Of a DNA stretch of 35,641 bases, positions 8,819 to 16,474 are shown in pieces (position 1 is the first letter of the stretch; every line of letters starts with the position of its first letter). The position numbers and the translations under genes are program-made. The notes below the pieces were generated by a model, which saw only the letters and a list, made by a program, of their open reading frames with translations, was not told where the DNA came from and ran no database searches. Source of the DNA: Planctomycetota bacterium (GTDB lineage: Bacteria > Planctomycetota > Planctomycetia > Pirellulales > Pirellulaceae); NCBI GenBank assembly GCA_036124135.1, contig JAZADA010000342.1:1-35641 (forward strand), read 5' to 3'.

Positions 8819-11800
8819 ATGAATCGTGTCACCAAGTATCGTTACCTGTTTGGCTACCTGGCTCTTTCCCTGGCCCTGCTGGGCAACCCGCTGCTGGCCC
8901 AGGAGAAGCCGACAGAGCCGGATGTGAACCAGCAACTCAGCCAGCTGGAATCCGAGCTGGGTAAGTACAAGGATGCCTCGCCCGAAGCGGCTGCCCTCAT
9001 GCTGAAACTGGCCGACCAGTATTACCAGCACGGTCGGGCGCTGGGCCTGGTACGTATTTGCCAACGGTTTACCACTATCCAGATCAAGCATGCTCAACAT
9101 CAACAGATGATGCTCAAGCTGATCGACGGGCTGCAGGTGTTATCTCGTAACAAGGACATGATCGTGGCCTGCCGGCAATACCTGGAACGCTATGGAAAGT
9201 CGGCCCAGGCCAATTCCGTGGAAGTCCGCCTGGCAGATGCGTTGATGCAAACCACGGATCGTGAAGGAGCCGCTGTCGCCGCACATGCCGTCTGGAAACG
9301 AAACGCGAATAACCCGGTTGGTAAGAAGTACGCAGCCCTGGCGGTGGCGCGATACCAGGCATTGGGCGGCCAGTACCAGAAACAGGGTGGGGAGCTGTCA
9401 GAAGATGTTTTTAACCGTATGCCGACGGGTACCTTCGCCCAGTTCATGGGGGAAAATGCTGCCAGGTTGTACGCGACCATCGAGTTGCGAGTTGAATCGA
9501 ACCGGGTGATTGCCAAGTTGTTCCAGCGTGGCATGGCGGGGGATGCGAACAGCCAGCGACAATGGCATCTGCTCACCGCGCAAAATTACGAGAAATTACA
9601 GCAATACACCAACGCGGCGGCTGCTTACCAGCGAGTCCGACAGATACGAGATGAGGCCAATCTCCTTTATTCCCAGGTCATGAATGTCTACAACAGCCAG
9701 GCGAACCCGGCGCAGACAGAAGGCCTGATGAACCAGTTTAAGTCCAAGTATCCCACGGATGCCAGGAAATGGACCCTGCAACTGTACGTGGCCAACCAGT
9801 ACCTGGGAGCCAAGAACAAGCCCAAGGGATTGGCACTCATTGGTGATGCCCTGCAGGGAGATGCGGTCACGTTTGATGCCGCGGGTATCTTCCTGCGTGA
9901 AAATGGCAGCGAGCTGCCTCGACTCCAGGATACCGAGCGTGTCTTCCGTGCCGCGATTGGTAAACAGCAGGATCCAGCCAGTCGCGCTCGTTTGTACCGT
10001 TACCTCGCTTTCAATATCTACACGGGTGAAGCTGCCAATAAGAATCGATCCCTGGCATTGTGCCGGGAGTTCCTCTCTCGCTGGGCGGATAACAGCAGCG
10101 ACACAAGTACGATGATTAACTACCTGTTTTTCAATTCTCCTGATGACAACAGCTTTCGCAATGACGTCAAGATGGTCCTGGCGGCCCGGAAGAAATCCTT
10201 GCAGTATGCCAACCTGCTCAACTATCCAAAGGCCTGGCTGGCGGCCAATAAGTCGAACAAGGAACTAAAGACACGCACGGCAATCCTAAAACAGGAACTG
10301 GCCGCCGCCGACCAGGATCCTCTTTTGAAGCTGTGGATTACCTCCTCGGGAACCACCAAGAAATCAGCCGAGGTTCGCAGCCAATTGTTGCAGCCCAATT
10401 ACTTCAACGCCATGAATAACGAGATGGCGACCCGGTTGCTGTACCAGCAGACAGATTACTATCGACGTTATGCACCGACCGCCAAGCGAGGTGAGGGAAC
10501 GCCGTATTATGCCCAGTGGGTCCGGAAGTTTCCTACGGACGAACAGGTGGCGCGCAATTATATTACTTTCGCAACAGACTATGGTACGCCGGAAGACTGT
10601 CGCGCAGCCATGCAGCACATGCTTAGGTTCCAATGGAAGACGAGTGACCCGGATCTGCACCGACGCATGATGATTTGCGCAGGCCGTAACAAGGATGTGA
10701 ACCTGGCTCGCCAGGCATACAACTGGATCAAGCGAGAAGAACAAAAGCACGGTTACGTGGCCAGCTACACCATCGAGCAGGGGGATGTGCTGCAGGAAGT
10801 GAAGCTCGCCAAAGAGGCCCTGGAACGATTCACGATCGCCTCCAATGCACCCATCTTTACCCTCACCAGTCGAGATGGTGTGATGCGACGACTCGCCCTC
10901 GAGATGGACCGCGCGAAGAAAATCCAACTGCTGCAACAGGCAATTGCCAAGAAATCGGATTACTACGGTTACCTGATCCAGCAACTGGCTGCCATCTACC
11001 TGGCGCCCGAGGAAGGTCAGAAAGTTGACTGGAATGGCTTGCTGGCGTTGCTGGAACAGGAACAGAAACGCCGGGTGGAACGTCCCTTCCGAACTTCCGG
11101 ATTGGATCCCTATGCGGTTGTGGCCTACATGACCCCCTTGCGTGCCGATGAAGAAATGCCGCCGGCCCAGAAGACGCAGTTTCTCCAGCGATTTGCTCGC
11201 CTGGACCTGGAACTGGCGTCACCCGTGGCACAGATGTTTCTCTCCGATGCAGCATATCCAGCTGCCAGCCCGCTGACGCAACAGTTGCTGGTCTACCAGG
11301 CAACGACGATCCAGAGCGGTGAAACCTATCGGGGGTTTGACCAGTTGACTCAATTCGTGCGTGCTGCAGCCGCCAATCAACGTCATGTCGTGGCGACCAC
11401 CGTGGGAACAGGAATCCTGGAGAACTTTTCCGGGGTCGACGAGGGACGCAGGAAAGCCGTTCGTGATCTTGTCAGCAAGAGTTACACGCAGATTGGAGAG
11501 GTGGGCCTGACCATTGACGAGGACAGCCCGATTGCACCGTTGCTGCAGGCTGCACTGTACCTGCGACTGGGAGACCAGGAACTGGCTTTTGAGCTCTACA
11601 CGAAGAACACGGCCTTGTTTGATGAGCATCGTCAATTGATGCCGGTCGACCTGGTGGAATTTGTCGTGGAGCGATTGATTGCGGCGGGTGGCGATGAGAA
11701 CTTTAACTACGTGGAAGACCTGGTTCGCACCTGGATTGTTAAGAACACCGAGTCCGCGGAGGTGGGCCTGGAAGCCAAGGCAACCATGCAGTTGCTGCTG

Positions 11801-16474: not shown

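Follow-up and report, generated by a model that had tools for sequence, protein, structure and literature searches.

In current models of the Agl-Glt machinery of Myxococcus, the periplasmic tetratricopeptide repeat (TPR) proteins GltD, GltE and GltC link a motor of the TolQR type to the outer membrane, and for GltD and GltE a helix of the partner protein is modelled as inserted in the TPR crevice (PMC11761067). In bacteria of the Planctomycetota-Verrucomicrobiota-Chlamydiota (PVC) group, clusters composed of a gene for a TPR protein, a gene resembling tolQ and two tolR-like genes have been described as unknown systems driven by the proton motive force (Williams-Jones et al. 2025, PMC12204202, section 8). 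Here we analyse a stretch of 35,641 nucleotides from a Planctomycetota bacterium of the family Pirellulaceae (positions 1 to 35,641 of contig JAZADA010000342.1, assembly GCA_036124135.1), hereafter the window. In it, genes for an ExbB/ExbD-type motor follow an open reading frame (ORF) for a giant TPR protein of 2551 amino acids (aa), located at 8819..16474 on the + strand, as are all the features of the window described below. Part of this cluster is already known, having been noted earlier in the literature, and searches on DUF4159 and on Planctomycetes together with ExbB/ExbD and TPR found no functional study of it. We favour, at a probability of roughly 45%, a reading in which the giant is a Sec-exported and most likely periplasmic elongated scaffold of a PVC-specific envelope machine driven by ExbB/ExbD.

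The giant ORF itself is genuine. It opens with an ATG, has zero internal stops, and lies in a window with an even G+C content of 54-57%. A homologue search over 5.8 billion proteins returned 63 relatives, about 60 of them 2321-2696 aa long, and most are collinear with the query over 99-100% at identities that range from 96% down to 39%. Their carriers belong to the Pirellulaceae, other Planctomycetales and the Limisphaerales (Verrucomicrobiota), and include two species in culture, Lignipirellula cremea and Novipirellula galeiformis. The protein is conserved along its entire length, with maxima at aa 900-1400 and 2250-2550. Moreover, contigs from three independent seawater metagenomes cover positions 8500-16800 at identities of at least 99%, where the indels found over the giant amount to a single compensating +1/-1 pair, 5 nt apart, with no net frameshift. 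An origin of the ORF as a fusion or an assembly artefact is ruled out by the full-length orthologues, the conserved loci and the metagenome tiling. The uninterrupted 7.6-kb frame reported by an initial annotation of the window, made from the sequence by a model, is thus borne out, and the orthologue check that it had proposed found the ORF to be normally whole. Short pieces of the gene were also found, one of them in a 10-Mb contig (L033, 392-20022), a noisy assembly where the giant and its DUF1501 and PSCyt2/PSD1 neighbours are broken into many small ORFs and pieces of the cluster lie on both strands. Because the neighbouring genes there are equally fragmented, we take these remains of the giant as assembly noise, most likely the product of long-read indel errors or misassembly rather than a natural split.

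Outside the PVC group, a search with a profile of the giant's most conserved region (A4) recovered nothing more specific than generic TPR proteins; its other matches were fragments of orthologues, and it yielded no named distant relative. Since nothing but generic TPR matches turned up beyond Planctomycetota and Verrucomicrobiota, the family is, as judged from these searches, restricted to the PVC group, and it has never been characterised. An RNA run from a sample containing the sequence yielded zero matching words.

The most peculiar part of the giant is its core. An AlphaFold2 (AF2) model covering aa 1120-2300, for which 45 orthologues were used, has a mean pLDDT (predicted local distance difference test) of 80.8 and is nearly all strand. 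The core holds five modules of about 95-105 aa with an immunoglobulin (Ig)-like fold and the signature G..l.v.V.D.D.D...v.V.v...gd.e.v.L.ET...SG.F...........G..v...Y.D. These are R1 (aa 1138-1232, 12230..12514), R2 in two halves (aa 1285-1342, 12671..12844, and aa 1790-1830, 14186..14308), R3 (aa 1862-1958, 14402..14692), the diverged R4 with an internal insertion of about 65 aa (aa 2003-2128, 14825..15202), and R5 (aa 2164-2268, 15308..15622). All of them were delimited by hhalign and a module hidden Markov model (HMM), with the AF2 model in addition for R1. No internal repeats appear when the giant is compared with itself by BLASTP, and the modules are seen by profile methods only. The HMM was made from R1, R3, R5 and the first module of TPR801, the 801-aa TPR protein encoded just upstream, leaving R2 and R4 out. 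It matches R1 at 1138-1232, R3 at 1864-1958 and R5 at 2164-2268, each with an E of ~1e-32, and R4 weakly in two pieces (2003-2044 and 2109-2128). On R2 it also finds two pieces, of which 1285-1340 corresponds to HMM positions 1-56 and 1791-1821 to positions 61-91. When the two halves of R2 are spliced together, hhalign aligns them with R1, R3 and R5 at 97-99% probability, in alignments that span the splice.

Between the two halves of R2 sits an insert of 435 residues, for which a separate AF2 model reached a pLDDT of 87.3 and a predicted template modelling score (pTM) of 0.82. The insert begins with the N-terminal part of a discoidin domain (F5/8 type C, CBM32-like; aa 1346-1430, 12854..13108; from Pfam, profile and orthologue alignment) and ends with the C-terminal strands of the same domain (aa 1739-1779, 14033..14155; from profile and orthologue alignment). 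When a profile of the insert (A2) is searched against the PDB, its first ~90 residues match discoidin/CBM32 structures (2kd7 with E 2.3e-7, domain 1 of galactose oxidase, and CBM32s), and its last ~40 residues match, collinearly, the C-terminal strands of the discoidin domain. The Pfam discoidin score on the giant stays at 24.2 bits, under the gathering cut-off of 28.2, because the domain is split; orthologues of the giant carry precomputed PF00754 matches. The N-terminal half of the discoidin is 67-69% conserved, and its invariant residues are those of the usual structural core.

The discoidin is in turn interrupted by two further domains. The first is a PA14-like beta domain (aa ~1440-1580, 13136..13558) found with AF2 and Foldseek, where the insert model matches the PA14 domains of RsgI (6qe7, E 1e-8), of Epa1A (4d3w) and of the Marinomonas ice-binding protein MpIBP (6m8m, TMt 0.55, root mean square deviation (rmsd) 5.9). 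The Pfam PA14 model (PF07691) has no match at E<=1 on the whole giant or its segments, and the modelled structure supports this assignment at the fold level only. The second is a domain similar to the carbohydrate-binding modules (CBMs) CBM6/CBM35 (aa ~1602-1736, 13622..14026), supported by profile, Foldseek and orthologues, and missing in some of the latter. Positions 262-398 of the insert profile match CBM6/CBM35 structures (8zvk with E 2.6e-10, the CBM35 3wnp with 1e-4, 2w1w and 5g56), and Foldseek superposes the CBM35 of the insert model on 3zm8 with an rmsd of 3.9 A over 131 columns, and also finds 4qaw. The Pfam CBM models do not match the giant, whole or in segments.

Three lines of evidence establish that R2 is split by the discoidin and that the discoidin is split by the PA14-like and CBM6/35 domains: the hhalign comparisons of spliced R2, the pieces found by an HMM from which R2 had been excluded, and natural variants that have a whole discoidin or no CBM. 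Among the variants, an orthologue from Limisphaerales (P0061) carries an uninterrupted 144-aa discoidin at the insert site. The layout of the giant can then be written as signal peptide - TPR-like arm - R1 - R2[discoidin[PA14-like - CBM6/35]] - R3 - R4 - R5 - TPR. The claims made from the sequence for this region have held well: a beta-rich core, five repeat modules (with R2 and R4 found to be split) and discoidin-, PA14- and CBM-like folds are all there, and the HMM and structure searches suggested as a check confirmed lectin-type folds; the nesting is new. These folds are established, and from sequence and models the binding of glycans by the discoidin, PA14-like and CBM domains is putative.

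The Ig-like modules also point to relatives elsewhere. Pfam returned only a sub-threshold DUF4785_2nd on the R1-R2 and R3-R5 segments. Foldseek with the whole 1181-aa core gave generic beta-sandwich arrays (S-layer, alpha-2-macroglobulin/complement, PorU and GH2), leaving its domains unresolved. The top match was the S-layer protein of the archaeon Nitrosopumilus maritimus (8c8k/8c8m, E 1e-21), which is also all that the module profile matches in the PDB (E 1e-4). Searched against 1.84 billion library representatives, this profile has 3793 matching proteins at E <= 0.001, with up to 48 copies per protein; the sampled ones are giants of the cell surface bearing DUF11, Big or IPTL-CTERM features. 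The module (V.V.D.D.D ... ET...SG.F ... Y.D) is therefore a widespread Ig-like rod module of about 100 aa for which Pfam lacks an adequate model. The abundance of the family in such surface giants, together with the archaeal S-layer protein as its best structural and sequence match and the occurrence of PA14 domains in adhesins, would fit a surface adhesin or a gliding or attachment apparatus, in which the giant extends beyond the outer membrane and attaches to external surfaces by its Ig rod and lectin head, and the motor moves or tensions it as in Agl-Glt or SprB-like systems. We regard this as quite unlikely: the giant has no outer-membrane sorting signal, autotransporter barrel, C-terminal domain of the type IX secretion system (T9SS) or PEP-CTERM and ends instead in a TPR domain, the cluster includes no secretion-system genes, and TPR arms at both ends suit a periplasmic adaptor better.

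The evidence that ties the giant to a motor comes from its gene neighbourhood. The genes of the cluster lie on the same strand and close together, with gaps of 3-70 nt or overlaps (3-38 nt or overlaps for those downstream of the giant). The order DUF1549/1553 - DUF1501 - TPR801 - giant - ExbB - ExbD - ExbD - small transmembrane (TM) protein - DUF4159 is found unchanged in more than 20 planctomycete loci, at identities as low as 40%. A further exported TPR protein, TPR540, comes next in the closer relatives (L001, L004, L005 and L007), and Lignipirellula retains the entire order including this third TPR protein. In Limisphaerales the order becomes TPR737 - giant - 139 aa - DUF4159 - ExbB - ExbD - TPR491, with a single ExbD, and the DUF1501 and PSCyt/PSD1 genes lie on the opposite strand. 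The most distant relative, 28% identical (P0062, locus L031), keeps the core set with no DUF1501 pair and has a MoxR ATPase next to it. This MoxR-type AAA ATPase (L031, 23322-24344) brings to mind the Bat/MoxR operons, a context associated with DUF4159 proteins. Promoter and terminator scans of 4800-24400 gave counts at or below shuffled expectation and do not inform on the limits of operons.

Because the linkage survives both rearrangement and divergence, we consider the giant likely to be functionally coupled to ExbB/ExbD, and the proposal that a scaffold is linked to the downstream motor gains support from synteny in the planctomycete loci, in Limisphaerales and in the 28% relative. It could also be argued that the giant is a passive structural protein of the periplasm, next to ExbBD as a matter of operonic convenience and with lectin-type folds that serve as spacers free of any ligand. 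TPR proteins are indeed very common in Planctomycetes, and the ligand-binding role of the lectin-type folds is only putative, but a linkage that persists between phyla despite a changed gene order, and at a sequence divergence above 70%, makes such a passive role very improbable.

The motor comprises a proton channel of the MotA/TolQ/ExbB family with an acidic N-terminal extension (16513..17556; HMM and sequence), hereafter the ExbB paralogue, and two ExbD/TolR paralogues of 147 and 152 aa (17560..18424; HMM and sequence), both of which retain the transmembrane Asp (GDIAFNL). If the second ExbD begins at its annotated GTG, it shares 38 nt with the first; an internal ATG 54 nt downstream is an alternative start. 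Next comes a candidate adaptor or transducer (18428..18907; sequence and orthologue alignment), a single-TM protein of 159 aa that has a disordered linker and, at its C-terminus, a conserved peptide. Its orthologues share a cytoplasmic ELREF..LKGR.PQEVMG, a TM helix, a variable disordered linker and a C-terminal ...ALGIGETK.A.P..NPL.D..DNLLD.V, the cytoplasmic motif and the C-terminal peptide being strongly conserved; the protein has no family match and no globular domain. It is followed by a multi-TM DUF4159 protein of 493 aa (18922..20403; Pfam and sequence) with about five predicted TM helices, the first three of them variable among orthologues, and with the conserved juxtamembrane motifs WNP.DP.AWYYG.....LNQS and PAGGG before the domain. 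The only relative that phmmer found for it in the PDB was 4i66, with E 0.022.

The C-terminal TPR domain (aa 2285-2551, 15671..16471), delimited by Pfam, TIGR02795 and PDB matches, is of the CpoB/YbgF/BamD type, as had been read from the sequence. TIGR02795 scores 123.6 bits on the giant against a cut-off of 90.1, a value summed over 3 TPR stretches, the best of which is aa 2325-2411; PF13525 (BamD/YfiO) scores 36.5 bits against a gathering threshold of 25 at aa 2379-2531; and the PDB matches of the C-terminal ~270 aa are CpoB, YbgF and BamD chains. However, CpoB/YbgF proteins have about 250 aa, an N-terminal coiled coil and a place in the tolQRA-tolB-pal-cpoB operon, and BamD/YfiO is a small outer-membrane lipoprotein with a lipobox, encoded in the context of the beta-barrel assembly machinery (BAM), whereas the giant has 2551 aa, no lipobox Cys and another gene context. 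We also tried the giant as an orthologue of CpoB or BamD and rejected it: the TPR HMMs pass, but size, architecture and context all fail.

These matches bear on whether the cluster is a PVC substitute for Tol-Pal/CpoB that keeps the outer membrane stable, or constricts it, as cells divide or bud, its CpoB-like TPR coordinating peptidoglycan synthesis. TIGR02795 is above its cut-off on both the giant and TPR801, CpoB and YbgF chains are matched in the PDB, and the ExbB paralogue scores better with the TolQ model than with the ExbB model (95.5 vs 66.2 bits, both under cut-off). The only database names of the giant orthologues are 'tetratricopeptide repeat protein', 'Tol-pal system protein YbgF' and 'TolA-binding protein', of which the last two agree with such a role, although these names are automatic. 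The TIGR02795 score adds up several generic TPR stretches, a giant of this size and architecture is unlike the ~260-aa CpoB, and Pfam/NCBIfam domain scans of the window and the related loci turned up neither TolA nor TolB nor Pal. The docking of a CpoB-type TPR on Tol and peptidoglycan-synthase complexes, evoked in the initial annotation, thus has no contextual support, and we consider a substitute for Tol-Pal unlikely.

The same scans, together with the DUF1501 pair, speak to another alternative, in which the lectin-type cluster captures dissolved or algal polysaccharide, ExbBD energises its import to the enlarged periplasm ('selfish' uptake), and the DUF1549/1553 and DUF1501 proteins process the substrate. 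This pair (717 and 417 aa; 2738..6215; Pfam and synteny) co-travels with the cluster, with which it is linked across phyla. Outer-membrane import is what ExbBD normally powers, discoidin, PA14 and CBM6/35 folds are typical of the binding modules associated with carbohydrate-active enzymes (CAZymes), and the lectin-type domains are the most variable ones, as would be expected if substrates change. Nevertheless, no TonB-dependent receptor, glycoside hydrolase, sulfatase-type CAZyme or sugar transporter was found in the window or the related loci, the single copy per locus and very stable architecture are unlike those of polysaccharide-utilisation loci, and the most distant relative does without the DUF1501 pair, so that nutrient capture seems rather unlikely to us. 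More generally, the context favours no specific function among Tol-like tethering, nutrient import and adhesion, because TolA, TolB, Pal, TonB-dependent receptors, CAZymes and secretion-system genes are all absent from the window and from the related loci.

At the other end, the giant starts with a probable Sec signal peptide (aa 1-27, 8819..8899), in agreement with the initial annotation: by eye, the sequence MNRVTKYRYLFGYLALSLALLGNPLLA followed by QE resembles such a peptide, with a site between ...LLA and QE and, on reading the sequence, no lipobox Cys. The N-termini of TPR801 and TPR540 have, also by eye, similar sites between ...QA and Q. The region that follows (aa 28-900, 8900..11518; Pfam and hhalign) is remotely TPR-like at aa 28-480, as hhalign against the giant's own TPR blocks gives 94.8% probability for aa 28-250 and 85% for aa 251-480. 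Pfam run on separate segments finds nothing for aa 28-900, and the Pfam TPR families in the N-terminal region are confined to aa ~990-1110, within the TPR block T1 (aa 901-1130, 11519..12208; Pfam and conservation), which is, along with R1, the most conserved part of the giant. The idea of an all-helical, TPR-like region of about 1130 aa thus holds for aa 28-480 and 900-1130, and finds no match for aa 480-900. A crude Chou-Fasman profile did not distinguish the helical from the beta regions of the giant and was discarded.

The 801-aa protein encoded upstream, TPR801 (6343..8748; Pfam, BLAST, module HMM and synteny), had been seen as a miniature of the giant, and it fits that description. It has a signal peptide, TPR at both ends and two Ig-like modules, and BLAST aligns it collinearly with aa 984-1367 and 2375-2490 of the giant. 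The module HMM places the first module at 201-299 and the second in two parts, 321-359 and 461-505, separated by a low-complexity, disordered loop of about 100 aa. The TIGR02795 (YbgF/CpoB) match of this paralogue has been given above. The third exported TPR protein, TPR540 (540 aa, 20400..22022; HMM and synteny), closes the set.

With these parts, the periplasmic scaffold reading can be laid out as a working mechanism. Proton flow through ExbB and the two ExbD paralogues would drive motion within the cytoplasmic membrane. The 159-aa protein, with its layout of a TM helix and a disordered linker, could then act as a tether similar to TonB or TolA, its conserved C-terminal peptide docking in a TPR groove of the giant, TPR801 or TPR540. 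In the giant, the conserved TPR ends (aa 900-1250 and 2250-2551) would serve as interfaces with other proteins, the Ig rod would span the wide planctomycetal periplasm, and the projecting cluster of discoidin, PA14 and CBM domains would hold a putative glycan polymer. We favour an envelope glycan, peptidoglycan or a polysaccharide linked to the outer membrane, over a nutrient for that role. By analogy, the machine may act as GltD/GltE do in Myxococcus, where they connect the outer membrane with the Agl motor, or as Tol-Pal does in Proteobacteria.

Several observations weigh against this scheme. The periplasmic location derives from a signal peptide recognised by eye and from the usual place of BamD/CpoB-type TPRs, and the Ig-module family, which occurs mainly in cell-surface giants, would also be compatible with a surface location for the giant. 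The SHLS/His motif of TonB/TolA-type coupling is absent from the 159-aa and DUF4159 proteins, and aa 481-900 of the giant have no match by profile comparison. In the lectin-type cluster, the Asp-Asp (Asp-cis-Asp) calcium/sugar motif of sugar-binding PA14 domains seems absent: at what we take to be its position, which does not come from a structural alignment, 12/12 orthologues have GNTTG or G.TTAL (TT/TA) and no DD. The CBM is the least conserved segment of the giant, with 33-36% identity to the query, and it appears dispensable in two planctomycete orthologues (P0045 and P0055) that carry the discoidin and PA14-like domains alone.

Other genes of the window surround this cluster. TPR540 is followed by a 176-aa protein (22041-22571, +), hydrophobic at its N- and C-terminal segments, which occurs only in the closest relative, L001, and is probably outside the core cluster. 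The flanking genes belong to hallmark families of Planctomycetota, namely DUF1501, DUF1549/DUF1553 and PSCyt1. Farther downstream, a DUF1501 protein (458 aa), a Big_2+PSCyt2+PSD1 protein (839 aa) and a PSCyt1+WD40 protein (941 aa) are encoded consecutively at 28020-34824 (+), a three-gene set matching the DUF1501 module, specific to PVC bacteria, that Kamneva et al. (2012, PMC3542564) described as the 'most complex'. The DUF1549/1553 and DUF1501 pair that travels with the giant is also found adjoining the cluster in other loci (L029, 21530-25356; L032, 3587-7256). One copy of this abundant but enigmatic gene pair is in this way tied to a defined machine, and it may offer a functional handle on it.

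Planctomycetes have an atypical envelope, with an enlarged periplasm, division by budding and uptake of large polysaccharides, and, to our knowledge, many PVC bacteria appear to be devoid of an obvious TolA or TonB. The giant marks in them a cluster of 8-10 genes, common to two phyla, that brings together a proton motor of the 5:2 type and three exported TPR proteins. Beyond the scaffold itself, we put forward, tentatively and with some doubt, that Planctomycetota and Verrucomicrobiota would possess a new class of proton-motor-driven trans-envelope machine, specific to these phyla and standing beside Ton, Tol-Pal and Agl-Glt: a periplasmic shaft of ~2500 aa whose nested lectin head grips a glycan of the cell wall or outer membrane, and which is pulled through a minimal TM adaptor with its C-terminal peptide in a TPR groove. 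If true, such a class could explain how the unusual envelope of PVC bacteria is shaped or energised. From the analysis come a precise domain map with three levels of nesting and candidate interaction elements (in the giant its conserved TPR ends, in the 159-aa protein its C-terminal peptide), and the cultured carriers L. cremea and N. galeiformis make the system directly testable.

How, then, does the locus compare with the systems described so far? The clusters of PMC12204202 and the present one occur in the same phyla and share, in one and the same order, a TPR gene, a TolQ/ExbB-like gene, a heterologous TolR/ExbD-like pair and, after them, membrane-tethered proteins. In the former the transducer has a single TM helix, carries an SHLS/His motif and ends in a vWA domain, whereas the present cluster has instead a domain-less 159-aa TM protein, with no His in its TM helix, and a multi-TM DUF4159 protein; no vWA domain was matched in it, the DUF4159 fold itself not having been compared with vWA. 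The size of the TPR gene of those clusters, and any Ig/lectin core in it, are not described in that work. Like the giant, GltD and GltE are TPR proteins of large size that are exported and whose genes accompany those of a TolQ/TolR-type motor, but GltD is all-helical and has no Ig or lectin core. The general Pfam/NCBIfam scans of the cluster turned up none of the GltA/B/C/H/K, CglB, GltG/J or TonB-CTD families, the giant not having been compared with Glt sequences.

The core has its own set of relatives. Its repeat fold is shared with the S-layer protein of N. maritimus and with macroglobulin-type arrays, although that S-layer protein is archaeal and has neither TPR nor a motor context. The domains of the insert have fold matches to CBM32 (discoidin), PA14 and CBM6/CBM35 modules, with matches at the level of sequence profiles for CBM32 and CBM6/35. 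Unlike the known CBM and PA14 modules, those of the giant have no enzyme or adhesin attached and are nested in each other and in an Ig-like module. In summary, the giant would belong with the periplasmic TPR scaffolds tied to motors of the Tol, Ton or Agl type, among which its unusual triple-nested insertion of lectin-type folds is the distinctive trait.

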